A stretch of 51,237 nucleotides of DNA. Origin: an uncultured Desulfobulbia bacterium (GTDB lineage: Bacteria; Desulfobacterota; Desulfobulbia; Desulfobulbales; CAZDYX01). Shown piece by piece: positions 1-13,136 of this stretch. Position numbers and translations under genes: made by a program. The stretch is taken from positions 10,597-61,833 of the forward strand of contig CAZDYX010000001.1 in NCBI GenBank assembly GCA_964509775.1, written 5' to 3'. How positions within the stretch are numbered: the stretch's first letter is position 1; each line of letters starts with the position of its first letter. The notes below the pieces were generated by a model, which made no database searches, was not told the DNA's origin, and saw only the letters and a list, made by a program, of their open reading frames with translations.

Positions 1-1770
1 AAAAAACCTAGAGAGTTATATGCCCGTACTCAAGCAACGGAATCACTTTTAGGAATTGAACCCTTTGTGGATAAGTTTCTTGATTCTGAAGAAAACCACA
101 AATACCTTGAAATGTTAGGGGTTGCCTTCACACCGTTAAGCCCTGAAAGCCTAATCGAAAGATTGCGAATTTTGAAAAACGCAACAGGTATCCCTAAAAG
201 GGAAATCGAAAATTGCTATCGTAGGCTAGATAGTTATATTCAAGAGGCATCAACTGAGGATCTTGAAATATTGAAGACTGCATTCGAAGTTGAAAAACTT
301 ATTCTTCATAATGCAGATGATTGGGTAAATTCCTCAGGGGTATTCCTTCATGCGAATGATGAAGATGCCCCCGGTGCACCATTGATTAGGGATTCTGTAA
401 AAGAACTAGCATTATGGGAAAGGTTAAGAATTCCAACCAGACCCGATTATGAATTCGTTATTAAATGGCTAGGAACGCTACCTAGCAACCAAAAATTAGA
501 TGAGTCAGACCTCAAACGAGTCTGCTCAATCTTGGCTAGGCATGGCTATAGGGTCATTGAAGAATGCAGGAGTGTACTTAACCTTATGGGAGAATGGGTA
601 CCTCTTGACAGCATTCAGTACTGGATTTCTAAATCCTTAGAGACTCCATTCAGCGATGATCTATACGCGGGTATAAGAAGAAAAACTGCGGACCTGCGTA
701 GTCTGCCAGAAGGATCTAAATTACCGTCCGGGCTTGAATCATGTCGATCGCTAATCGAAAAAATAGAAAACCGAATTCAACCTTCTATAGAAAGCATTGC
801 CGAAAAAGCAGTTGAGGTTTCTTGGATAACCACATGTGGGGGATTCCTTGAGAGGGTGATACTAAAAGACCTAGAAATGGTAAAAGAGGAGAATATCCTC
901 AACCTTGCGAAGAGGATGTCAAAGACACGAGTTGCTGAAGTGGATACGATTAAATCCACCCCCTACCTTAATGGAACTCCCGCTGGTTTGCAAAAGCAGA
1001 TGGAGGCTGTATGGATTAATGAAATCCTCTGTATAATAAGGATGAAGAATGCAAGAAAAGCAAAAGTTCTTCCGAGAGAACTTGGAAATACCTTCCAGAA
1101 TCAAGAAATAGTTGATGCAATTGTTTATTGCTGTGATAGAACAGAACAGACCATAAAGGACTACTTTGAGTCTAACTTCCAGTTAGATCCTGTGTCTGAT
1201 AACCAACCGGTGGAACGTCAGAAAGAACCAAAAAAAAACCAATCTGAAGATACTTCCTTTTGGAAAACACCAAATATAGAAGGAAATCCCATTGAATTAG
1301 CTACTGAACATGAAAATGAGGGTAACTCAACAAGTACAATAGAAAAGGAAGCTTCTGGTGTAGTTGAACATCATCCAGTTCATCCTGAACATAAAGCGGT
1401 TCCGCTCATCGAGCGATTTGCTAGAGCTCTTGGGTATATCAGGGAATCAGATCAAAAATATAAGCATCAAGACGGAAAATGCATTATTAAAAATTCTGAA
1501 TCTAGATTCCCATGGGAACTTGTAGATAAATCAGGAAATCACATAAAATCCTATTATCCTAAAGAGTGTTGCCTTCGTGCGGGATCTATCGAAATTCCGG
1601 CAGATGTATGGAATCTCCTTGAAGAAGACCCTATCCACTACTCCCTCATCCTAATAGAAGCAGATAGAACCCCATTCGAGTATACAGGAGAACTTCTCAT
1701 CAAGCTTAAGCAGAAAGGTGACATCACCCTATTCCCGGCTAGTTACAATATACTGGCTAATGATCGGTAA
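1..1770 (+). CDS. C-terminal ~590 aa of a large uncharacterised protein; the 5' end lies outside the window
   Basis: Frame 1 is open from nt 1, with no stop before the GTG at 67 used by the ORF track, so the gene is cut by the window edge. I recognised no catalytic motif. A charged low-complexity linker (..PVERQKEPKKNQSEDTS..ENEGNSTSTIEKE..) precedes a ~120-aa C-terminal module. Its layout only weakly recalls DUF3883/NOV-C-type ends of bacterial sacsin-like ATPases, which is speculative. The region is AT-rich compared with the methyltransferase downstream. Confidence 0.6.
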   Translation, partial: KKPRELYARTQATESLLGIEPFVDKFLDSEENHKYLEMLGVAFTPLSPESLIERLRILKNATGIPKREIENCYRRLDSYIQEASTEDLEILKTAFEVEKLILHNADDWVNSSGVFLHANDEDAPGAPLIRDSVKELALWERLRIPTRPDYEFVIKWLGTLPSNQKLDESDLKRVCSILARHGYRVIEECRSVLNLMGEWVPLDSIQYWISKSLETPFSDDLYAGIRRKTADLRSLPEGSKLPSGLESCRSLIEKIENRIQPSIESIAEKAVEVSWITTCGGFLERVILKDLEMVKEENILNLAKRMSKTRVAEVDTIKSTPYLNGTPAGLQKQMEAVWINEILCIIRMKNARKAKVLPRELGNTFQNQEIVDAIVYCCDRTEQTIKDYFESNFQLDPVSDNQPVERQKEPKKNQSEDTSFWKTPNIEGNPIELATEHENEGNSTSTIEKEASGVVEHHPVHPEHKAVPLIERFARALGYIRESDQKYKHQDGKCIIKNSESRFPWELVDKSGNHIKSYYPKECCLRAGSIEIPADVWNLLEEDPIHYSLILIEADRTPFEYTGELLIKLKQKGDITLFPASYNILANDR

Positions 1771-1785
1771 AATCGTTGGAGTTTT

Positions 1786-2595
1786 ATGAGTAATACGATT
1801 ACATCCGTAAACCCTTTTGAAGCAACGCTTCAATCTCTAGGACGTGCTTTCACAGTCCGAGATATCGCGACATATGACCTTATCACTTGTCGGGAAGATG
1901 ATTCCATCGATAAAGTATTAAAGATTCCTGACTATGAAGGGCTCGACTATATCCCTGTGAAGAATCAATTGGGAACGATTATCGGGATACTAGAGCGACC
2001 AAACATGGAATTAGCACCCACATCCGCTGGTTCGAAGATGCGACACTTAGACGACGAAATTCTAGCTTCAGCAGATACCTCATTGATACCCGCACTCGAA
2101 CGGCTTGTGAATACAGGATATCTACTTATATTGGACCAGTGCCGGGTTTCTGGAATAGTGACCAAGGCAGATATCCAGAAAATGCCTGTGGTTCTTCTAG
2201 CATTTACTTTTTTAGTACATATTGAATCTCTCATGGCGAATGCCATTACGTCGCGTTGTAAGAATGAACAGGAATGGATTGAGCTTCTTAGTAAAAAGAA
2301 TCAGCATCAACTAAAGCTTAACTATGATAGACAAGTTGGGTTAGGGTTTGATCTGCCGCGCATTGTTTTAACCGGATTCCTACAAAAAATGATACTCTTA
2401 ATCAAGTTATATAAATTGCCAATAGAGGATTCCATTGAATTGGATGAATTGAAGGAGTTGCGGAATCAAGTGGCTCATTCTCGATTTACCATACAGAACG
2501 ATGAAGATGTTCGACTGTTAGTAAAAAGAATAAACCTATCAAAGAAGTGGATCGATTTTATACCTGTTATGATTAATAAAGGATTAAGCTCATGA
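1786..2595 (+). CDS. CBS-pair domain protein with a C-terminal Swt1-like HEPN domain (R-x4-H motif)
   Basis: The N-terminal half has a CBS-like pattern ([37 protein letters not shown] and [18 protein letters not shown]). The C-terminus carries [12 protein letters not shown] (RNQVAH at nt 2461-2478), the HEPN Rx4-6H signature in the same context as the HEPN of the DUF499 protein. A GGAG-like RBS lies upstream, and the start is 15 nt after the preceding stop. Confidence 0.65.
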
Positions 2596-2822
2596 GTACT
2601 CCTAAAAAACTAATCGAAGTAGCCCTTCCTCTGGAAGCCATCAATAGTGCCAGCGCCAGCAAAAAATCAACCCACCGCAGTCATCCGAGCATTCTCTCTC
2701 TCATTGACAAAGCGGCTACTGGCGGCAGCACAGGCGGTAATCTTCGTGCAGATGGTTGACGATCCCTACTCATATCTCTGCCTTTTCCCGAGCAAGAATC
2801 CCAAGGGGAAGGAGCCGGTTTG
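2592..2822 (+). pseudogene. Frameshifted, truncated N-terminal remnant (~first 85 codons) of a second DUF1156 methyltransferase gene
   Basis: It translates as [33 protein letters not shown], then after a +1 shift ..[38 protein letters not shown]. This is collinear with the intact methyltransferase N-terminus [75 protein letters not shown]. Its ATG overlaps the CBS-HEPN stop (ATGA). Confidence 0.75.
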
Positions 2823-3785
2823 ATGAGTACTACTCATGTGTTATTCCCCAATCCCTCCAAGTTCATCAGCGCATTATGTGATCCTGGCAATCTTTTCATC
2901 CTTGGCGCTGGAGCCTCTTCAGAGTTTATGCCACCTGGCAACGCATTCTTACGGAATATTGGAACCCTCTGGATAAAGGGTGAAGGGTTCTCCCCCAGGT
3001 CCAGCATTTCAAAGATATCCAAGCGTCTTCTACAGAGCAGATGCTTCCAGGATGGACTGGATGCAGCACTTATCGGACTCATCCCGGACCGGGGAGCTGA
3101 GTGGATAGTGTCCTACTTGCTATCACCCTCTACGAAAGTCAAACCGTACTTAAGCTATGAAGTGTTTAAGAGAATAGCACGGCCTTTTACTATAGCTAAC
3201 TACAATCATGATGCGCTTGCTAGGCTTTCTCTTGGAGGTTTATCGGAGACCAGGATTCTGGAACCTCACGGTTCAACCTATCCCGGGCTTAAGGAACTTT
3301 TCGATGAAGTGGAAATACAGGAGTATGCCGATATGGATATTCCTGCACCCAATGCTGATAACTTCATCATGCTTAAGCCAGAACCGTCAATATTTGCACA
3401 CTCTCCATTCTTCAATCTACTCGATCGAACCAGAAGCCGAGTTCAGAATGTGATTTTTATCGGATACTCATTCAGCCTTCAGCAAGATGGTATAAGAGAT
3501 GACGCGGTTTCGTATGACTACTTCACCGACTACCTCCAAGGCAAGAGAACTTTTGTGGTTATGCCGGAGCCGCACAAACTGGTTGAAGAGTTGTCTGGAG
3601 AATTGCATACTCGAGACGTTTATGGTATTCCTCTCCGCTGGGATCTCTTTTCACAGGCAGTGTTCTCCAGCGAAGTGGTCTTTAGCCCTGTCACTCGTGC
3701 TACCTGTCTCGCTTCGATACCCAAACTAATATCGATCTACCAAGAGTTGCTAGAAACAGCCCAAAGCAGAGAAGGAATCAAATGA
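2823..3785 (+). CDS. Stand-alone SIR2-like (SIR2_2 / ThsA-DSR type) domain protein, ~320 aa
   Basis: LFILGAGAS (nt ~2914-2928) matches the glycine-rich NAD-binding start of SIR2_2 domains. ANYNHD (3198-3212) matches the TxNYD motif carrying the catalytic Asn. EPHGS (3261-3275) matches the catalytic His motif, and VIFIGYSFS matches the conserved GYS strand. The stop overlaps the methyltransferase start (ATGA at 3782-3785). The ORF track starts at TTG 2820; I prefer ATG 2823. Confidence 0.7.
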
Positions 3786-6694
3786 GTACTCAAAATACAT
3801 ACCCTAAGAAACTAATCGAAGTAGCCCTCCCCCTGGAAGCAATAAATATTGCCAGCGCCCGCGAGAAGTCTATCCGTCATGGTCACCCTAGTACCTTCCA
3901 TCTCTGGTGGGCTAGGCGACCTCTTGCGGCGGCCCGGGCAGTCATTTTCTCGCAAATGGTGGACGATCCTTCCTCGCATCCTGATCTGTTCCCCACTGAG
4001 AAGGCCCAAGAGAAGGAGCGCCAGCGTCTTTTCCGCATCATTGAGGACCTGGTGCTCTGGGAGAATACGACTAATGAAGAAGTCCTCCAGCGGGCACGGG
4101 ATGCGATCTGGGGAACCTGGCGCCGCACCTGCGCAGCGAATGCCGACCATCCGCGCGCCAAGGAATTATTCGACCGCAACAAGCTCCCGGCGTTCCACGA
4201 TCCCTTCGCAGGCGGTGGTGCCCTACCGCTTGAAGCCCAGCGTCTGGGCTTGGAGAGCTATGCAAGCGACCTGAACCCTGTGGCGGTCCTCATCAACAAG
4301 GCGATGATTGAGGTTCCTCCTAAGTTCGCCGGGAAGCCTCCAGTGAACCCTGAGACAAGGAAAAAGAAAGACTTGATCGAACGGGAGTGGAAGGGAGCAC
4401 AGGGCCTCGCCGAAGACGTCCGCTACTACGGCAAGTGGATGCGAAACGAAGCAGAAAAGCATATTGGCCATCTCTACCCCAAAATCGAGGTGACGGCGGA
4501 TATGGCCAAGAACCGGCCCGATCTCAGACCCTATGTCGGCAAGAAGCTCACTGTTATCGCATGGCTTTGGGCACGGACGGTAAAGAGCCCAAACCCTGCA
4601 TTCAGCACTGTCGATGTGCCCTTGGCTTCGACTTTCATGCTCTCGACAAAAGCGGGGAAGGAAGCGTATGTCGAGCCGGTGATCGAGGACACAGGCTATC
4701 GCTTCACTGTTAAGGTGGGGAAGCCAAAAGATGCCGAAGCAGCGAAGAGCGGGACTAAGTTATCACGCGGTGCGAATTTCCAATGCCTGATGTCCGGAAT
4801 CCCAATTCCGAGTGACCATATCTACAACGAGGCAAACGCCGGTAATATGGGTGCTCGGCTCATGGCGATTGTTGCAGAGGGCGATCGAGGTCGAGTTTAT
4901 CTCGCACCGACGGCGGAACATGAAGTTATCGCGTCGAAGGCAATGCCCGAGTGGAAACCTGAGGTAATGATGCCCGAGAATCCGCGCTGGTTCTCGCCAC
5001 CCCTCTATGGCCTCAAGACCTACGGTGACCTCTTCACTCCCCGCCAACTCGTGGCGCTGACAACCTTCTCAGACTTGGTGGGCGAAGCTCTTGAGCAGGT
5101 GAAACATGATGCCATCTCTGCCGGCTTGCCTGATGATGGTAAACCTCTGCGGGATGGAGGGACTGGGGCATCGGCCTATGCAGAAGCGGTGGGGGTGTAT
5201 CTAGCGTTTGCATTAAGCAAGCAAGCGGACCTTGGGAATAGCTTGTGTCGATGGGAGCCAATCGCGCAGTGCCCGCGTCAGCTTTTTGGTCGCCAAGCTA
5301 TACCGATGATATGGGACTTTGCTGAAGGCAATCCGCTTGGAGAGAGTTCAGGTGCATGGATTGTCTTTATTGATGGAATTGTAAAGGCTTTTTCAAAAAC
5401 GTTTGAGTTTATTTCATCATCGGCATATGGTTACTCACAACAAGCAGATGCTGGCCGACAAGAAATATCTAAAGGCAAAGTTGTATCAACTGACCCTCCG
5501 TATTACGATAACATTGGCTATGCAGACCTTTCGGATTTCTTCTACGTTTGGTTACGGCATACTCTAAAGCTAGTTTTTCCGGATCTCTTCACGACACTTG
5601 CGGTTCCAAAGGCTGAAGAATTGGTTGCCACGCCTTATCGACATGGAAGCAAAGAGAAGGCAGAAACCTTTTTTCTTGATGGAATGACACAGGCCATGCA
5701 TCGCCTTGCCGAGCAGGCGCACCCTGCGTTCCCAGTCACTATTTATTATGCCTTCAAGCAGTCTGAAAGCGATAGCCAAGATGGTACTTCGAGTACCGGC
5801 TGGGAGACTTTTCTTGACGCTGTTATTCGCGCTGGTTTCTCTATGACTGGCACTTGGCCGATTCGTACAGAAAATGACAGTCGTATGATTGGTCAAGGTA
5901 CCAATGCACTCGCCTCCAGTATCGTACTTGTCTCTCGTCAGCGTCCAACTGATGCACCTACCATCACACGCCGCGACTTCCTTTCTGCTCTCAAGACCGA
6001 ACTCCCTCCCGCCCTCGTAAAACTCCAGAAGGGTAATATCGCCCCAGTTGACCTCGCCCAATCTGCCATCGGTCCCGGCATGGCCGTCTTCACCCGCTAC
6101 GCTAAGGTCATCGACGCTTCAGGGAAGGCCCTTTCGGTCCGCGAAGCCCTTGCCCTCATAAACCAGACCCTCGACGAGGCCCTCTCCCAGCAGGAAGGCG
6201 ACTTCGACGCCGACAGCCGCTGGGCTCTCGCCTGGTTCGACCAGTTTGGCTTTGCCGAGGGAGAGTACGGCGTAGCTGAAACTCTCTCCAAGGCCAAGGA
6301 CACCTCGGTATACGGCATGGTGGAAGCGGGCATTCTCGTTTCGGGAAAGGGCAAGGTTCGGTTATTGAAGCCGGTGGAACTCGCCTCCAACTGGGATCCC
6401 ACAACCGATGCCCGCCTCACCAACTGGGAGACGGTTCACCAGCTCATCCGAGTACTGGAGGTTGGGGGCGAAGGTGATGCAGCCGAACTTGCGCGAAAGC
6501 TTGGCAGCAAGGCCGAGGCTGCACGGGAACTTTGCTATCGACTCTATACCCTCTGCGAACGAAAGAAGCGGGCACAGGAAGCCCTCTCCTATAACGGTCT
6601 TGTGCAGAGTTGGCCGGAGATCATGAGGCTGGCGACGGAGGGTGGGAAACTAAAAGCGAAGAGCGGAGAGTTGTTCGAGGATGCCGAGGAGTAA
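3782..6694 (+). CDS. DUF1156-family DNA methyltransferase (N6-adenine/N4-cytosine type), 970 aa
   Basis: The N-terminus [41 protein letters not shown] is characteristic of DUF1156. The SAM-binding motif I is [14 protein letters not shown] (nt 4199-4219). Catalytic motif IV is [23 protein letters not shown] (DPPY at nt 5492-5503). Confidence 0.9.
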
Positions 6695-6697
6695 GCT

Positions 6698-6820
6698 ATG
6701 CCAGAAGACAAGCGGTTTATATGCCTGGCAAATTCCAGGAAACGCAAGGGATTCTGCATTATAGGTATCGTTTTATTGGATGGCGCACCTGATGGATGGA
6801 TCCGACCAGTAAGCTCATGA
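6698..6820 (+). pseudogene. 40-codon N-terminal fragment of a dual-OB-domain-type protein
   Basis: MPEDKRFICLANSRKRKGFCIIGIVLLDGAPDGWIRPVSS* matches my recollection of the conserved start (..CLANSRK..G.C.AG......WIRPVS) of much longer proteins. Here it stops after 40 codons. Confidence 0.4.
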
Positions 6821-6975
6821 AACAACGGCAGATCGAGACATTTGTTGACTCTGAGATCATCCGCGACGGTTGCCTACTATGCAGCGAGGATGCTCCAACG
6901 CATTGCCATCGGAGACTCGTTGCCGAGTATCTCCAGGATGCGTGGAAGGACATCGATATTATTCACCTGAAGTGA
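6817..6975 (+). pseudogene. C-terminal fragment of a DUF488-family protein
   Basis: ..DGCLLCSEDAPTHCHRRLVAEYLQDAWKDIDIIHLK* matches the conserved DUF488 C-terminus (LLCxExxpxxCHRxlvaeyL...v.HL). The N-terminal two thirds of the family are absent. Confidence 0.55.
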
Positions 6976-6985
6976 GGCTAGCCCC

Positions 6986-7684
6986 ATGTCGAAACCTGGT
7001 ATAGAAGCACTGGACATGATAGGAAAAAGTGCTATTATTCCTATCATGGTAAAGAAAGAGGAATATCGACAAATCATTTCAAATAAAGTTATTAAGAGAG
7101 TGCATCATCTTGGTCGTGGTTCCGTATTTTCGGCAAGTAAATTCGCCGATATCGGCCCAGGGGCTGCGATCGACCTGATCCTTTCACGTCAAGCAAAGCG
7201 TGGTACGATCCGTCGCATTGCCCGGGGACTCTACGACTACCCTGTCAAGGATCCGGAGTTGGGACTGCTGAGCCCTTCTGTCGAGGCTATCGCGAAGGCA
7301 CTGTCTGAAGCCGGACGCCTGAAGCTTCAGCCATCGGGAGCGTATGCAGCCAATCTTCTTGGATTATCCGAGCAAGTGCCGATGAAAATCGTCTTTCTTA
7401 CCGACGGGGCTTCGAGAAAGGTCAAGGTTGGGAACCGCGAGATCATCCTCAAGCGAACCACCCCACGCAACATGGCCGCAGCGGGTCGCCTGGGCGGCCT
7501 TGTAATACAAGCCCTGCGATACCTTGGGCAAGATTCCGTCGATGCCGAAGTTGTCGCCAGGTTGAAACGAGCCGTTCCTCCTGAAAAACGTGCGGAGGTG
7601 GTCAAAGACTCCCTTTCGGCTCCAGTCTGGATTAGGACCCTCCTTTCCCAGGTTTTTGCGGAAAAAGGTGGGTCACATGGATGA
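6986..7684 (+). CDS. abiEi: AbiEi-family (DUF6088-like) type IV antitoxin / transcriptional regulator
   Basis: ..VFSASKFADIG..AIDLILSRQAKRGTIRRIARGLYDYP..LSPSVEAIAKAL..LQPSGAYAANLLGLSEQVPMKIVFLTDG is the typical AbiEi pattern. The gene is paired with an AbiEii gene through an 8-nt overlap. The start is uncertain (ATG 6986 with a GAGG RBS, or ATG 7046). Confidence 0.8.
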   Translation: MSKPGIEALDMIGKSAIIPIMVKKEEYRQIISNKVIKRVHHLGRGSVFSASKFADIGPGAAIDLILSRQAKRGTIRRIARGLYDYPVKDPELGLLSPSVEAIAKALSEAGRLKLQPSGAYAANLLGLSEQVPMKIVFLTDGASRKVKVGNREIILKRTTPRNMAAAGRLGGLVIQALRYLGQDSVDAEVVARLKRAVPPEKRAEVVKDSLSAPVWIRTLLSQVFAEKGGSHG

Positions 7685-8699
7685 ATTCCATGCGTTGCCT
7701 GAAGCGAGGCGTCAGATCATTTTTCAGGAAGCCGGAACTCGCCTCGGGTTGCCTGCCATTAGCATCGAGAAGGATTGGTGGGTAACCCGAGTCCTCGAAT
7801 CCCTCTTTTCGTCACAGGAAATAGCACCTCTTGTTACATTCAAGGGAGGCACTTCGCTTTCGAAGGCGTTCAACCTTATCAGAAGATTTTCTGAGGATAT
7901 TGATCTGGTGATAGATCGCAAAAGCCTGGCCATACCAGAAGATCAGGATCCTGAATCCGCACCATCTGGACGGAAGAGAAAACTCGGAGTGAAGCAGGTC
8001 AAGCATTCATGCGCGGCATGCATCAAGGACAGGATTCTGCCAACGCTGCGGGCGGATTTTGATCTGCATGGATTGTCTGATGCGACACAGATTGAAGTAG
8101 ACCCCCTTGATCCGGAACAGCACACGGTTCTGGTGCAGTATAAGAGTTTGTTCACATCAGGAGCAGGTAGATACACACGCCCAGCGGTAAAGGTGGAGTT
8201 GGAAGCCCGATCGGAAGATGAGCCTTCTCTGCAACGTGAGATCCAATCAATCGCAGCACAGGAATTTTCCGATGCCTCCTGGGCGCATGCAGTTTCCGTG
8301 AGAACCCTAGATCCAGCAAGAACTTTCATCGAAAAGGCGTGCCTGTTGCACGAAGAAAACATGCGACCACCTGATAAAAATATAAAGGTTGCTATGTCCC
8401 GGCATATTTACGATTTGCACTTGATGATGGATTCAGACTTTGGGAAACGTGCCTGTGTAGACCGGCCCTTGCTCGACAGGGTTTTAAAGAACCGACGGAT
8501 CTACTTCGAATATACATGGCTTGATTATGAAAAATTTGGCCCTGGTTACTTCAAGTTTGTACCTCCAGCAGATCGGATAGGTTTCTGGCGCGATGATTAT
8601 AGAAGCTTGTGTGAAAACATGGTTTTCGGCGAAGCTCCGGAATTTTCTGATTTGATGGATTCGCTTGCTGCGCTGGAAATTAAATTGAATAATAAATAG
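7677..8699 (+). CDS. abiEii: AbiEii/AbiGii-family nucleotidyltransferase toxin (DUF1814)
   Basis: IEKDWWVTRVLESLF...FKGGTSLSKAFNLIRRFSEDIDLVI is the hallmark N-terminal nucleotidyltransferase motif. I place the start at ATG 7677 (MDEFHALPE..), overlapping the abiEi stop, rather than the track start at 7590. Confidence 0.85.
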   Translation: MDEFHALPEARRQIIFQEAGTRLGLPAISIEKDWWVTRVLESLFSSQEIAPLVTFKGGTSLSKAFNLIRRFSEDIDLVIDRKSLAIPEDQDPESAPSGRKRKLGVKQVKHSCAACIKDRILPTLRADFDLHGLSDATQIEVDPLDPEQHTVLVQYKSLFTSGAGRYTRPAVKVELEARSEDEPSLQREIQSIAAQEFSDASWAHAVSVRTLDPARTFIEKACLLHEENMRPPDKNIKVAMSRHIYDLHLMMDSDFGKRACVDRPLLDRVLKNRRIYFEYTWLDYEKFGPGYFKFVPPADRIGFWRDDYRSLCENMVFGEAPEFSDLMDSLAALEIKLNNK

Positions 8700-8715: not shown

Positions 8716-11700
8716 ATGGCAATTTCCAATTACGAACGTGTCGGAAAGTCGATGGAACTACTCAAGGCAGGCTTGGCTCCCTTCGCCGAACGGGAAGTCT
8801 TCGCCAGGCTCCGCACCATTGACGCCCAAGCTATGATTGAAGACTTCGCATCAGCTGACAGGATGCTGGCCGGCAAGGAGATGGCTGACTGGGATGTCCA
8901 GGCGCTTTTAAACTTCCTGTGGACACGCTGGAATGAAGTATTCAGCAGGACTCTCGGCAATGCTGAGCGCAGCCTTGTCAGTGAACTCCGGGAGCATCGT
9001 AACAGATGGGCCCATCAGGCGAACTTCTCAAGCGATGACGCTTATCGTGCCCTGGACTCTGTCGGGCGCCTCCTTACCGCAGTCTCTGCCCAAGAAGCTG
9101 ATGAGCTCGAGAAAATGAAGAACGAGCTCTTGCGGCTCCGTTTCGACGAGCAGGTGCGCAACGAGCGTCGCAAGGGCCTTAGCTCTACCATTGAAAGCGC
9201 GGTAACCGGCACCTTAAAGCCCTGGCGCGAAGTCGTGACGCCACATCGCGATGTGGCTTCTGGGAAATACCAGCAGGCTGAATTCGCGGCTGATCTGTGG
9301 CAGGTCCATCTGGGCGAGGGCTCCGATGAATATCGGAATCCTGCCGAATTCTTCAGAAGAACCTATCTCACCAACAGCCTCAAGGGGCTTCTGGTGAGCG
9401 CGATCCGGCGACTCACGGGCTCAGGCGGGGATCCTGTCGTCCAGCTTCAGACCAACTTTGGCGGTGGCAAAACGCACTCCATGCTTGCCCTTTATCACCT
9501 TTTCTCCGGGGTGAGTCCCGTTGATCTCATCGGGGTAGACGAAGTGCTGAAAGAGGCTGCTGTCTCGAACGTACCGAAGGCCCGCCGCGTCGTGCTGGTT
9601 GGCAACAAGATCTCTCCGGGCAATCCTTCCACCAAGATCGACGGAACGGTCGTGCGCACACTCTGGGGAGAGCTTGCCTGGCAGCTTGGTGGCAAGAAAG
9701 CTTTCTCCCGCATCGAAGCCGATGATAAAAATGCAACGAGCCCCGGAGACGTCCTTCGTGAACTATTCAACGAGTACGGGCCTTGTCTCATCCTTATCGA
9801 TGAGTGGGTTGCGTACGCCCGTCAGCTCCACGACCAGGGTGATCTGCCGGCAGGTGACTTCGAAACGCATTTCAGCTTTGCCCAGGTACTCACGGAGTCC
9901 GCCAAGCTGGCTAAAAACTGCCTCCTCGTAATAAGCCTTCCGGCATCAGATGATTCAGGCTCCCCCCATACCCTCGCCGATGATGCCGAAGTCGGTGGAC
10001 AGCGCGGCCGGGAAGCCTTGGTTCGGTTGCGCAATGTCATCGGCCGTGTCGAGTCTTCGTGGCGGCCTGCGAGCGCAGAAGAAGGCTTCGAAATAGTCCG
10101 TAGGCGGCTTTTCGAGCCTCTGAACGATGCAGCCCACTTCAAGGATCGCGACATCATCGCCCGGGCTTTTTCCAGCTTCTACCAGAGCCAGCAACAGGAA
10201 TTCCCTCCAGAAAGCCGCGATGCAGATTACGAAAAGCGCATCAAGGCAGCCTATCCCATCCATCCTGAGATCTTCGACCGCCTCTATACCGACTGGTCCA
10301 CGCTGCTCAAATTCCAGCGTACGCGGGGCGTACTGCGCCTCATGGCTGCGGTCATCCATAGCCTCTGGGAAAAAGGCGACAAGAACCCGCTTATCATGCC
10401 CGCCAACATCGCCATCGATGATGCCCGAGTCCAATTCGAAATGACGCGTTATCTCTCCGACAACTGGGTGCCCATCATTGAGAAGGATGTGGACGGCCCC
10501 GGGTCCCTTCCCCTGCGCATCGACGCCGAAGTGCCAAACCTTGGCAAGTTTGCCGCTGCACGGCGCGTGGCGCGTACCATTTATCTCGGCTCCGCACCCA
10601 CCGCCGACGCAGCCCATCATGGTATCGAAGATCGCCGCATCAAGCTCGGCTGCGTCATGCCCGGCGAGTCGCCGGCAGTATTCGGCGATGCGCTCAGGCG
10701 CCTTTCAGGCGCTGCCACCTACCTGTACCAGGATGGTTCCCATTTCTGGTATTCTACCCAGCCGACGGTCACAAAGCTTGCAGAGGACAGGGCAGAGCAA
10801 CTCAAGCGTGAACCGGACAAGGTCATCCAGGAACTAGACAGCAGGCTGCGGATTGATCTCAAGCAGAAGGGTGACTTCGAACGCATCCATCCTTTCCCGC
10901 ATGGCGGTCAGGATGTCCCCGATGACAGGGATACGAGGCTTGTAGTCCTAAGTGTCGATCATCCGTACATCAGAGATTCGGACAACGCAGCCGAAGCCGA
11001 AGCTCGAAAGATTCTCGAATACCGCGGCACATCGCCACGGCTGTACCGTAACAACCTCGTGTTCCTCGCTGCCGACAAGAACCGCCTCCAGGATCTCGAT
11101 GAGGCAACCCGCAGATTCCTTGCATGGTCTTCTATCCTTGCGGAGAAGGATCAGCTGGACTTGAGTCCCTATCAGGTTAAGCAGGCGGAACAGCAGTTGA
11201 AGACTGCCGACACTACCGTAACAGTACGGCTGCCGGAGACCTATCAATGGATTCTTGTCCCCGGCCAGACTACCCCGCAGGCTCCTGTCGAGTGGCATGC
11301 GATCAAGGTTTCAGGGTCCGAGCCTCTCGCCGTCCGTGCCTGCAAGAAGCTAAAAAGCGAAGAGTTCCTCATCATCAATTTTGCGCCTACGAGATTGCGG
11401 ATGGAATTGGATCGCATTCCCCTTTGGCGCGGGAATGATGTGTCGGTGAAGCAGCTCTCAGAAGACTTCGCCCGGTACCTATACCTGCCAAGGCTCCTGA
11501 CATCCTACACCTTGGCAAAGAGCATCGGGGATGGATTAGGTCTTCTGATGTGGGAACAGGACTCCTTCGCCTGGGCTGATGAATGGGACCAGGCAGCGCG
11601 AAGGTATCGAGGCTTGCGTTCCGGTTCGAATTTGATCTGTCCTGACCCTGATTCGACTGGCCTTCTAGTTAAGCCTGAGGTTGCCCTGAAACAGATGGAA

Positions 11701-12240
11701 CAGGAAACAAAACCCGTCAGGATCGAACTCAGCCCCGAGCGGATCGAACTTTTACCATCCGCTACCATTCACTTCACCTTGAAGGGTTTTGACGCGGATG
11801 GACGCCCCGTTCAGGTATCGAAGGCTTCCTGGTCGGCGACTGGTGGCCAGATCGATGCATCCGGGCTTTTTACTGCAGGAGATGCGTTCGGGCAGTTCAC
11901 AGTCGATGTGGAAATCTTCGGACTGCATACTCGTTCGATCGTCTCGATCCATGATTTGGCACGACCGCCGATTCCGGAAAAACCCTTGATACCTGAGACT
12001 CCACGCCTCAAGCGATTCCACGGTACCGTAGTGCTCAATACCGAACGTGTCGGCCGGGATGCAGGACGCATCGCCGAGGAAATCATCTCACATCTTGCCA
12101 TCCAGGCAGGAGCAAAGATAACCGTCACTCTTGAGATAGATGCCGAATTACCATCCGGTGCCGGTGATTCTCTCATGAGAACAGTGACTGAAAATGCCCG
12201 TACCCTGCATTTTAGCAATCAGGGGTTTGAGAGGGAGTAG
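8716..12240 (+). CDS. Swt1-like HEPN + DUF499 (BrxC/PglY-like) P-loop ATPase with a C-terminal Ig-like (Big_2-type) segment, 1174 aa
   Basis: The N-terminal HEPN is SELREHRNRWAHQANFSSDDAYRALDSVGRLL (RNRWAH at nt 8998-9015). Walker A is NFGGGKTHS (GGGKT at nt 9460-9474) and Walker B is CLILIDEW, both typical of DUF499. Near the C-terminus, IELSPERIELLPSATIHFTLKGFDADGRPVQVSKASWSATGGQIDASGLFTAG resembles bacterial Ig-like Big_2 domains. Confidence 0.85.
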   Translation: MAISNYERVGKSMELLKAGLAPFAEREVFARLRTIDAQAMIEDFASADRMLAGKEMADWDVQALLNFLWTRWNEVFSRTLGNAERSLVSELREHRNRWAHQANFSSDDAYRALDSVGRLLTAVSAQEADELEKMKNELLRLRFDEQVRNERRKGLSSTIESAVTGTLKPWREVVTPHRDVASGKYQQAEFAADLWQVHLGEGSDEYRNPAEFFRRTYLTNSLKGLLVSAIRRLTGSGGDPVVQLQTNFGGGKTHSMLALYHLFSGVSPVDLIGVDEVLKEAAVSNVPKARRVVLVGNKISPGNPSTKIDGTVVRTLWGELAWQLGGKKAFSRIEADDKNATSPGDVLRELFNEYGPCLILIDEWVAYARQLHDQGDLPAGDFETHFSFAQVLTESAKLAKNCLLVISLPASDDSGSPHTLADDAEVGGQRGREALVRLRNVIGRVESSWRPASAEEGFEIVRRRLFEPLNDAAHFKDRDIIARAFSSFYQSQQQEFPPESRDADYEKRIKAAYPIHPEIFDRLYTDWSTLLKFQRTRGVLRLMAAVIHSLWEKGDKNPLIMPANIAIDDARVQFEMTRYLSDNWVPIIEKDVDGPGSLPLRIDAEVPNLGKFAAARRVARTIYLGSAPTADAAHHGIEDRRIKLGCVMPGESPAVFGDALRRLSGAATYLYQDGSHFWYSTQPTVTKLAEDRAEQLKREPDKVIQELDSRLRIDLKQKGDFERIHPFPHGGQDVPDDRDTRLVVLSVDHPYIRDSDNAAEAEARKILEYRGTSPRLYRNNLVFLAADKNRLQDLDEATRRFLAWSSILAEKDQLDLSPYQVKQAEQQLKTADTTVTVRLPETYQWILVPGQTTPQAPVEWHAIKVSGSEPLAVRACKKLKSEEFLIINFAPTRLRMELDRIPLWRGNDVSVKQLSEDFARYLYLPRLLTSYTLAKSIGDGLGLLMWEQDSFAWADEWDQAARRYRGLRSGSNLICPDPDSTGLLVKPEVALKQMEQETKPVRIELSPERIELLPSATIHFTLKGFDADGRPVQVSKASWSATGGQIDASGLFTAGDAFGQFTVDVEIFGLHTRSIVSIHDLARPPIPEKPLIPETPRLKRFHGTVVLNTERVGRDAGRIAEEIISHLAIQAGAKITVTLEIDAELPSGAGDSLMRTVTENARTLHFSNQGFERE

Positions 12241-12852: not shown

Positions 12853-13136
12853 TGGAGAATAATGGCAAACCAACCCAAGAATACCTTCAAAAAAAGCTTG
12901 AAGCGAAGATAAATGAGCCAGTAATTTTCTTCGATGTTTTTACTGAAAAAGAAAAGCCATCGCAATGGACTATCTATAATTTCAACACGTCATATCTGAT
13001 AGAAAAAGAGAAATACACAGTGATCCTATTTATCCCAAAGAGCGATGAGTGCTTTCTCTGCTCTACACGTTTTGCCGTGTTCGAAGATGCCAAAGACGCC
13101 TATATATTAATCACTTCATGCAATGATGAAGGCTGA
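12852..13136 (+). CDS. Hypothetical protein, 94 aa, AT-rich
   Basis: It is coupled to the preceding ORF (TAGTG overlap). I recognised no family. An internal ATG at 12863 is an alternative start. Confidence 0.4.
   Translation: MENNGKPTQEYLQKKLEAKINEPVIFFDVFTEKEKPSQWTIYNFNTSYLIEKEKYTVILFIPKSDECFLCSTRFAVFEDAKDAYILITSCNDEG

Follow-up and report, generated by a model that had tools for sequence, protein, structure and literature searches.

A decayed hmaB 5' end in an Hma defence operon as a probable relic of accessory-gene exchange

Accessory effectors are embedded in defence operons, Hma and BREX among them, and are rapidly exchanged; to our knowledge, little has been established about how such genes are replaced while the operon around them stays intact. 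Here we describe a locus in a 51-kb stretch of DNA (the window; contig CAZDYX010000001.1) from an uncultured Desulfobulbia bacterium, in which a predicted Hma operon contains, besides an intact hmaB gene for a DUF1156 methyltransferase, a second, truncated hmaB 5' end (the stub), with a SIR2-like gene between the two. The first-pass annotation of the window had read this arrangement as the scar of a cassette exchange at a 9-mer, ATGAGTACT, with which the stub, the SIR2-like gene and the intact hmaB all begin. The host assembly (3.98 Mb in 585 contigs) is a fragmented metagenome-assembled genome (MAG) with 5% contamination and several hmaB copies. Coordinates refer to the window unless marked C1, and the 10.6 kb upstream of the window were taken into the analysis as well (C1:1-14000).

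The predicted operon runs in the order HmaA, GHKL ATPase, CBS-HEPN, hmaB stub, SIR2-like, HmaB, AbiEi/AbiEii and HEPN-DUF499 HmaC, with all features inside the window on the plus strand. HmaA is encoded just upstream of the window (C1:4631-8191; Pfam SNF2-rel_dom, Helicase_C and NOV_C; PADLOC HmaA, 1656 bits). It is followed by an AT-rich accessory gene for a 1393-aa, TmtA-like GHKL/HATPase_c_3 protein (Pfam HATPase_c_3, PADLOC TmtA), which starts upstream of the window at C1:8185 and whose C-terminal part occupies positions 1-1770, and by the gene for a 269-aa CBS-HEPN accessory protein (1786-2595; Pfam CBS and a weak HEPN_RiboL-PSP match). Next come the stub (2592-2822), delimited by alignments and translations, the gene for a 320-aa SIR2-like protein (2823-3785), assigned by fold and motifs, and the intact hmaB (3782-6694), which encodes a 970-aa DUF1156 N6-adenine methyltransferase (PADLOC 1583 bits; Pfam DUF1156, 6.7e-31, and MethyltransfD12). 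Between hmaB and hmaC lie an AbiEi antitoxin-like gene (6986-7684; Pfam DUF6088/AbiEi_4, PADLOC AbiEi) and an AbiEii nucleotidyltransferase toxin-like gene (7677-8699), whose start was taken from the gene call in the related contig L007, the longest open reading frame (ORF) beginning at 7590. The operon ends with hmaC (8716-12240), for a 1174-aa protein in which a Swt1-type HEPN domain is fused to a DUF499 ATPase (Pfam HEPN_Swt1 and DUF499; PADLOC 1137 bits).

By its gene content, the locus is assigned to the Hma (type 1 BREX-related) defence operons: it encodes an SNF2 helicase with a C-terminal NOV_C (PD-(D/E)xK) nuclease, a DUF1156 methyltransferase and a DUF499 ATPase with a HEPN domain. 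It thus shares all three core genes with the known system, with very high PADLOC scores, and differs from it by three embedded modules (GHKL with CBS-HEPN, the SIR2-like gene, and AbiEi/ii) and by the dead second hmaB start. Hma was renamed a type 1 'BREX-related' (BR) system in a comparative study of 2026 (PMC12839542), in which SIR2-like and CBS accessories have no occurrence. The N-terminal Swt1-type HEPN domain of HmaC is a described trait of type 1 BR systems, both there and in the available text of a study of Halomonas (PMC11232893).

Relatives of the operon provide the arrangements from which the present one could be assembled; both the CBS-HEPN/methyltransferase and the SIR2/methyltransferase orders that had been postulated as ancestral were found. 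The first is represented by L022-L028 (8 contigs from several runs), which encode HmaA, a 1390-aa GHKL protein, CBS-HEPN, an intact 963-aa hmaB product and HmaC, and which are free of the stub, the SIR2-like gene and AbiE. The only close relative cluster of the window's CBS-HEPN protein, P0010, belongs to these L022-type operons (90% aa identity), and their CBS-HEPN/hmaB junction, ...AAGCTCATGAGTACTCCTAAAAAACTAATCGAAGTAGC, is identical to the CBS-HEPN/stub junction of the window. The 290-nt gap between hmaB and abiEi in the window (6695-6985) has no counterpart in L022, where hmaB and hmaC abut.

The SIR2-like gene is always found directly upstream of an hmaB, while its own upstream neighbour varies. 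Pairs of a SIR2-like gene and hmaB that lack a stub occur in L013-L018 (SIR2-like identity 50%; neighbour Abi_2), in L020 (51%; neighbour a full Fic gene of 385 aa) and in L019 (71%; neighbour a 74-aa Fic C-terminal fragment). Compared with the full Fic gene of L020, the fragment in L019 (L019:458-682) is another truncation scar in the same slot. The contigs closest to the right-hand part of the window's operon are L007-L012, which come from six runs and have the order 844-aa DEAD helicase, 162-aa ORF, 290-aa CBS protein, 77-codon DUF1156 ORF, SIR2-like, HmaB, AbiEi/ii and HmaC. The window's SIR2-like gene is 99% identical to theirs, and their 77-codon DUF1156 ORF means that a stub with the same truncation point was already present in that operon type. 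A DNA search of 40 genomes of the same order returned no orthologous locus and matched only the conserved hmaB 5' end.

The stub aligns with the adjacent intact hmaB at ~72% identity over 218 nt and at ~90% over the first ~60 nt; the similarity noted in the first-pass annotation is therefore real, though longer than the ~60 nt given there. In the alignment, an in-frame gap of 12 nt follows the 9-mer, and the stub has lost 2 nt near 2700; this deletion breaks the frame and leads to a frame-0 stop at 2757-2759. Differences between the window and L007 stubs are distributed over the three codon positions as 15/19/21 (of about 76 each), and those between functional hmaB 5' ends (L022 vs the intact gene of the window) as 2/2/23. 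With the frame lost and substitutions falling independently of codon position, the segment 2592-2822 bears the marks of a real, neutrally decaying hmaB 5' pseudogene, in agreement with its original description as the decayed 5' end of a DUF1156 gene.

The short DUF1156 frame might instead be a functional small gene, encoding a stand-alone N-terminal helical domain under selection. Such a gene would account for the open 77-codon frame of L007-L012, with its coupled stop/start overlaps and its Pfam DUF1156 match, for an 84-aa ORF on contig C10 of the same genome that keeps the HLWWARRP motif, and for the recurrence of stubs in several phyla. However, the frame is broken both in the window and in an independently assembled contig, L029, substitutions between the two stub lineages are equal across codon positions, the WWARRP part of the HLWWARRP motif, which is invariant in hmaB, is destroyed in the window and L007 stubs, and truncation points vary from locus to locus between ~28 and 84 aa. 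A selected small gene is thus very unlikely. As a pseudogene, the stub would code for nothing useful today, and its last codons would provide the SIR2-like gene with a ribosome-binding site: the hmaB-derived sequence ends in GAAGGAGC (codons E-K-E-R), a consensus Shine-Dalgarno sequence that precedes the SIR2-like ATG by 9 nt. Scans of the stub region detected no promoter-like site, no terminator-like site and no Rfam family.

Comparison with the two groups of relatives shows a mosaic operon, composed of an L022-like left arm and an L007-like right arm (SIR2-like, HmaB, AbiEi/ii and HmaC; 99% identity to L007-type contigs). In the left arm, HmaA, the GHKL protein and CBS-HEPN are 79%, 79% and 90% identical to L022 at the amino acid level, and the CBS gene has only ~45% nucleotide and 35% aa identity to its L007 counterpart. 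Nucleotide identity to L007 then rises to 70-80% in the stub and to 98-100% at 2828-3907, falls to 82-88% at 3908-4087, recovers to 93-98% at 4088-4447 and falls again to 72-80% at 4448-4567. At the far end of the operon, HmaC is 99% identical to L007 vs 75% to L022. Within the otherwise L007-like hmaB, the three-way comparison delineates an L022-like patch at 3905-4035 and a second patch at ~4502-4591.

Since the relatives supply both parental arrangements, the breakpoints, which lie where hmaB is most conserved, could be located with a precision of a few bases. Among sites informative between the window stub, the L022 hmaB and the L007 stub, those at 2541-2621 are L022-like in 31 cases vs 2 that are L007-stub-like, and the switch to the stub lineage occurs between 2621 and 2624 (Fisher p = 1.5e-9 at the best split). 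The stub would accordingly consist of a segment brought by the L022-like left arm (2592-2622) and a segment with L007-stub derived changes and the same truncation point (2624-2816; 75% identity to the L007 stub). By alignment, the hmaB homology stops at ...GGGGAAGGAGC (~2816), followed by CGGTTTG and then the ATG of the SIR2-like gene; the putative microhomology joint is AAGGAGC(C) at 2808-2816, the hmaB codons K-E-R. In L019, the region upstream of the SIR2-like gene reads AAGGAGGAGC / ...AAAAGGAGGAGC, then ATGTACC, then ATG, with the same GGAGC-N7-ATG spacing as in the window. Several breakpoints thus fall close together in the conserved 5' portion of hmaB (the first few hundred bases), and they do so in the decayed copy as well as in the intact one.

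Two other origins of the stub can be weighed against this pattern. The 5' end of the neighbouring hmaB could have been duplicated locally in tandem, which would have produced the stub with no exchange between operons. A perfect 434-bp duplication of an hmaB 5' end in another locus (L128) indicates that such duplications can occur, or can be assembled, but the window's stub and the hmaB next to it have no more than 72% identity, the first 31 nt of the stub and their upstream context equal the L022-type junction, and the closest relatives of the left arm are not those of the right arm; a local duplication is therefore highly improbable.

Alternatively, the stub could be an assembly artefact, a chimeric or collapsed contig of two co-occurring strains, as the state of the MAG, its several hmaB copies and a join located in conserved sequence would allow. 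This was one of the outcomes that the first-pass annotation had named as fatal to its reading. However, the independently assembled L029 (ENA MEGAHIT contig k139_864394, 2931 bp), which spans positions 478-3408 of the window with GHKL, CBS-HEPN, stub and SIR2-like genes, differs from it by four substitutions, all outside the stub, and is identical in the stub, its junctions and the 2-nt deletion. Past the crossover, the stub matches neither L022 nor L007, and so it is no splice of those two types, and the stub/SIR2-like joint recurs in the six separate runs that yielded the L007 type. An artefact is extremely unlikely.

The stub is thus probably a relic of accessory-gene exchange between Hma operons, in which the recombination would have taken place inside the conserved ~250 nt at the start of hmaB. 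The initial proposal of a cassette exchange that left a duplicated hmaB 5' end in a recombinant operon stands in this form; the single joining event that it envisaged does not, at least three events being required. Nor does the exchange explain the compositional step across the locus, as had been suggested. The GC content is 35-45% in the GHKL and CBS-HEPN genes, 46-50% in the SIR2-like gene and 55-59% in hmaB and hmaC. In L022, which has neither the stub nor the SIR2-like gene, GHKL and CBS-HEPN have 32-42% vs 47-56% in the core genes. The same contrast in an exchange-free operon means that the step belongs to the older GHKL/CBS-HEPN module and not to the SIR2-like exchange.

The 9-mer ATGAGTACT requires separate consideration. 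Exact matching and translation bore out the three copies at stop/start overlaps that had been described, at 2592-2600, 2823-2831 and 3782-3790, all on the plus strand, with M-S-T as the N-terminus of all three products; there is no fourth copy in the window. Copy 1 is the start of the stub, and the CBS-HEPN stop (TGA, 2593-2595) sits within its ATGA. The stop of the shifted stub frame (TGA, 2821-2823) shares its A with the ATG at 2823 (TGATGA), where copy 2 begins, and the SIR2-like stop (TGA, 3783-3785) sits within the ATGA of copy 3. Shuffled windows contained 0.22 matches on average, and three were reached in 0 of 100. The whole assembly has 8 copies vs 27 expected under a zero-order model, three of the eight in one 1.2-kb stretch. 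The 9-mer is therefore not a common gene start, which removes the second objection that the first-pass annotation had raised against itself. Avoidance of the embedded palindrome AGTACT was considered as the cause of this rarity and ruled out by its genomic frequency (271 observed vs 279 expected).

A fixed cassette junction formed by ATGAGTACT or AGTACT, be it a gene-start site for crossover (site-specific or by microhomology) or a 9-bp target-site duplication flanking a SIR2-like cassette, would explain why three exact copies stand at consecutive gene starts, why two of them bracket the SIR2-like gene (2823-3790) and why the copy at 2823 lies only 6-7 nt past the end of the hmaB homology. The breakpoints, however, are elsewhere. 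The crossover in the stub falls at 2622-2624, ~30 nt after copy 1 and not at 2592-2600, and the hmaB homology continues to ~2816, from where 6-7 bases of unrelated sequence lead up to copy 2. The L007-type contigs share the stub/SIR2-like joint, yet their stub starts with ATGACTGCA (in its longer form ATGACTGCACTT). In L019 the SIR2-like gene starts with ATGAATGCT (longer, ATGAATGCTGCT) and hmaB with ATGAGTAGT, the latter also in one order-level relative; in L013 and L020 the SIR2-like and hmaB starts share only ATG.

Beyond the close clade the 9-mer is absent at hmaB starts, the more distant hmaB genes starting otherwise. A heuristic scan by motif, which covered 113 loci with 104 candidate hmaB starts (67 belonging to ORFs longer than 600 aa), recovered it only in the window's locus, L007 and L022; the recurrence in other DUF1156 loci for which the first-pass annotation had proposed to look was thus not seen. 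Furthermore, the SIR2-like gene is accompanied by neither terminal inverted repeats nor a transposase or integrase: no recombinase or transposase was detected among the genes scanned from C1:1 to window position 13136, no inverted repeats bracketing 2823-3790 were found, and the integrase of L022 is located only at the far end of its island. A junction word is very improbable, and the claim that the joining took place at or next to the 9-mer start junction is replaced here by the breakpoints at 2622-2624 and ~2816.

The origins of the copies appear to differ. Copy 1 with its upstream context is identical to the hmaB start of L022, which is likewise ATGAGTACT; it arrived with the L022-like left arm, hence three copies in the window vs two in L007. 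Copies 1 and 3 are thus homologous hmaB starts. The first four bases are imposed by the TGA/ATG overlap, and 39 of the 67 long hmaB ORFs start with ATGA. Copy 2, at the SIR2-like start, is probably a matter of coincidence or convergence, because the 71%-identical relative in L019 starts with ATGAATGCT, two substitutions away, its N-terminus being otherwise colinear. Starts of more distant SIR2-like genes are ATGGCT... and ATGGGG..., and SIR2-like and hmaB start regions have no similarity past the 9-mer.

The start of the SIR2-like gene (2823-2837) also reads ATGAGT-ACT-ACTCAT, a 6-bp inverted repeat around codons 2-3 that includes the start codon. The overlapping 18 nt at 2820-2837 are 78% alike to positions 2756-2773 within the stub, a similarity that is likely due to chance.

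Exchange by homology within hmaB, which we prefer, could have proceeded in the following steps. In an older event, an hmaB would have been cut at ~nt 228, and an incoming SIR2-like/hmaB pair would have been attached there by its Shine-Dalgarno region. The joint would have formed on AAGGAGC microhomology between recipient hmaB codons 74-77 and the incoming ribosome-binding site, with a homologous anchor deeper in hmaB; for an illegitimate joint on this particular microhomology, the alignments give somewhat less than an even chance. Homology-facilitated illegitimate recombination and insertion-duplication (Campbell-type) integration are known from natural transformation genetics, and the older event could have followed either route, the first anchored in hmaB and the second involving a circle of stub and cargo. 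In the known processes, a homologous anchor with a microhomology joint, or a single crossover with a fragment-bearing circle, yields a truncated copy, an insert and a full copy. The present case is read from sequence, and the later mosaic hides which variant acted. A Campbell circle would account for a stub whose 5' part resembles the recipient and whose 3' part travels with the cargo. Campbell integration into an L022-like operon as the sole event was ruled out, as the downstream hmaB, AbiE and HmaC are mostly L007-like. Later, homologous exchanges would have replaced the left arm, with the crossover at 2622-2624, and the right arm, with the crossover between 2812 and 2960, leaving patches within hmaB.

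Several observations weigh against this history. The parents found are relatives and not the actual donors, the left arm having no more than 79-90% identity to L022. Between the window and L007, the stub diverges by ~24% and the adjacent SIR2-like gene by ~1%; to account for this discrepancy, a further exchange is needed, or else ectopic conversion that struck the stub repeatedly, and consequently the order and direction of the events are not fixed. A single-crossover (Campbell) model predicts an L022-like hmaB downstream, whereas only the 3905-4035 patch is of that type. The microhomology joint is deduced from a single 71%-identical relative (L019). Finally, the match at the SIR2-like start extends over nine of nine bases, with a chance of ~2e-4 to 1e-3 per gene pair (8 of 39,185 ATGA sites have the 9-mer), and a mechanistic cause of copy 2, such as micro-conversion or an old target duplication, is possible. 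The chance of GTACT following ATGA is small for one pair and unremarkable across a scan of many windows.

Similar stubs were found elsewhere. A survey covered 80 hmaB loci, drawn from species-representative genomes across many phyla. N-terminal-only stubs upstream of hmaB on the same strand were present in 4-5% of them; the numbers are small and the pattern is consistent. A second, decayed Hma locus occurs in the same genome (C10:93-6391, L060) and consists of an HmaA-like helicase, Schlafen/AlbA_2, HATPase_c_4, an 84-aa hmaB stub, cargo and a truncated hmaB. Its stub (3946-4200) keeps intact motifs, the cargo is a 526-aa DUF4062/HATPase_c_4/Fic-like_C protein, and hmaB is truncated at 205 aa and followed by transporter genes, with no hmaC. 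Further cases have the orders HmaA, two small ORFs, stub, AAA_21/AAA_15 ATPase and hmaB (L076); PIN, stub, HicA/HicB and hmaB (L138); and MqsA, SecB, short stub and hmaB, with no cargo between the last two (L092). In L128 (minus strand, ~3363-4235), the 434-bp tandem duplication of the hmaB 5' end includes the upstream region and is either very recent or an assembly artefact. With the exception of L128, the stubs in the surveyed loci are 72-87% identical to the neighbouring hmaB.

The L007 operon contains two stubs. Its 162-aa ORF upstream of the CBS gene (L007:4164-4652) opens with a decayed DUF1156 N-terminus (RKLIELVVLLWSIE...), which has 39% aa identity to the hmaB start (E = 1e-6) and no remaining nucleotide similarity; this stub, the farther from hmaB, would be the older one. 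Its more advanced decay suggests that new cassettes enter next to hmaB. Neither a middle-only or C-terminal-only hmaB fragment upstream on the same strand nor a duplicated hmaC start was found in the 80 loci. Two near-complete hmaB genes within 7 kb of each other, in tandem or divergent, are present in ~10% of the loci (L075, L085, L111, L112, L115, L128, L140, L119), and such paired genes are ready substrates for exchange.

Other candidates for cassette scars were rejected. Among the short DUF1156 matches of an order-wide scan, those in G036 and G319 are contig ends, the one in G317 results from IS110 disruption and the one in G300 is a deletion relic. L085 and L075 contain second full-length hmaB copies, of which the L085 copy is frameshifted.

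A more general view, which we offer tentatively and would ourselves lean against, is that accessory defence genes are acquired at the conserved hmaB 5' end, which would act as a polar site based on homology. Recombination in the DUF1156-coding start would bring new cargo in directly upstream of hmaB, and each entry would leave a dead hmaB stub ahead of the cargo, with older stubs farther out and more decayed, as in L007. The unit of stub and cargo would be portable, because the stub would provide the left homology arm for entry into other Hma operons. Integron cassette arrays likewise stack accessory genes beside a fixed point; they differ from the Hma locus, where no integrase, attC-like sites or conserved junction word were found and exchange apparently proceeds by ordinary homology. 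If correct, an acquisition site of this kind would be a recombinase-free analogue of an integron array that works across phyla. Should the stub-and-cargo pattern prove general, it would give a simple rule for how Hma systems collect effectors, hmaB stubs would be a marker for recently acquired and possibly new defence genes, and short DUF1156 'genes' would call for caution in annotation as being usually relics.

The insertion of accessory genes into hma operons is already published; the scar and its mechanistic implication appear not to be. The available text of the Halomonas study (PMC11232893) reports phage defence demonstrated for the Halomonas HmaA and inserted genes between hmaA, hmaB and hmaC in ~66.5% of hma loci (e.g. 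Septu, PARIS and AAA_21 pairs), and it names the region a 'defence gene insertion hotspot'. The present locus is a further example of such embedded genes; it differs in that it has a duplicated hmaB 5' end and mapped breakpoints, whereas neither a molecular scar nor a mechanism is described in that text. What the present analysis adds to the known insertion of accessory genes into hma is a mechanistic variant, in the form of the scar, the mapped breakpoints and the recurring stubs.

The SIR2-like protein has neither a Pfam nor a PADLOC match, so that no curated SIR2 family model recognizes it, and an exact look-up of its sequence returned nothing. A word-indexed search gave 7 relatives, and a profile search of 1.8 billion cluster representatives gave 351. 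The family thus has no fewer than 351 cluster representatives, of which most stand alone as proteins 300-340 aa long (including P0011-P0158), and none of the 95 members scanned matched Pfam. In an alignment of 95 sequences, G28, G30, S32, N128 and H149 show no variation, and A29 and D130 almost none. E187, G214, D227 and W273 are invariant as well.

The family profile matched PDB entry 8yhx ('SIR2 family protein') weakly (E = 0.0011) on the same motifs, and also sirtuin-5; a PDB profile search with a shallow alignment had given only noise, mainly PUF4. The AlphaFold model computed from the 95-sequence alignment has a predicted local distance difference test (pLDDT) score of 94.4 and replaces an earlier prediction from 7 sequences (pLDDT 50). 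All of the top 50 Foldseek matches in PDB are SIR2-family proteins (ThsA, DSR2, AVAST5, SIR2-HerA, SIRT2/3; E to 8e-5, TM-score 0.4-0.5). The SIR2 label of the first-pass annotation is therefore upheld by the modelled fold and the catalytic motifs (GAGxS, N128/D130, H149), which point to a distant family not represented in Pfam. The best structural matches are defence SIR2 NADases (ThsA of Thoeris, DSR2, SIR2-HerA and AVAST5), which share the GAGxS, N/D and H motifs; the present protein, likened to them by sequence and model at 11-14% identity and the above TM-scores, differs in being a stand-alone protein of 320 aa with no sensor domain. The analysis thus defines a SIR2-like family missed by current domain libraries.

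The part of hmaB at 4680-5040 is hypervariable, the window, L007 and L022 being about equally different from one another (~50-72% identity per 90-nt window). It is probably the target-recognition region, an assignment that follows the recognition domain described in PMC12839542, and it resembles a swapped target-recognition region in otherwise closely related alleles. Given this variability, near-identical Hma operons may methylate different sites. In the whole genome, CAGCTG is strongly depleted (150 observed vs 577 expected under a maximal-order Markov model), and low counts were likewise obtained for CTCGAG and GTCGAC; this suggests restriction-modification pressure on these sites.

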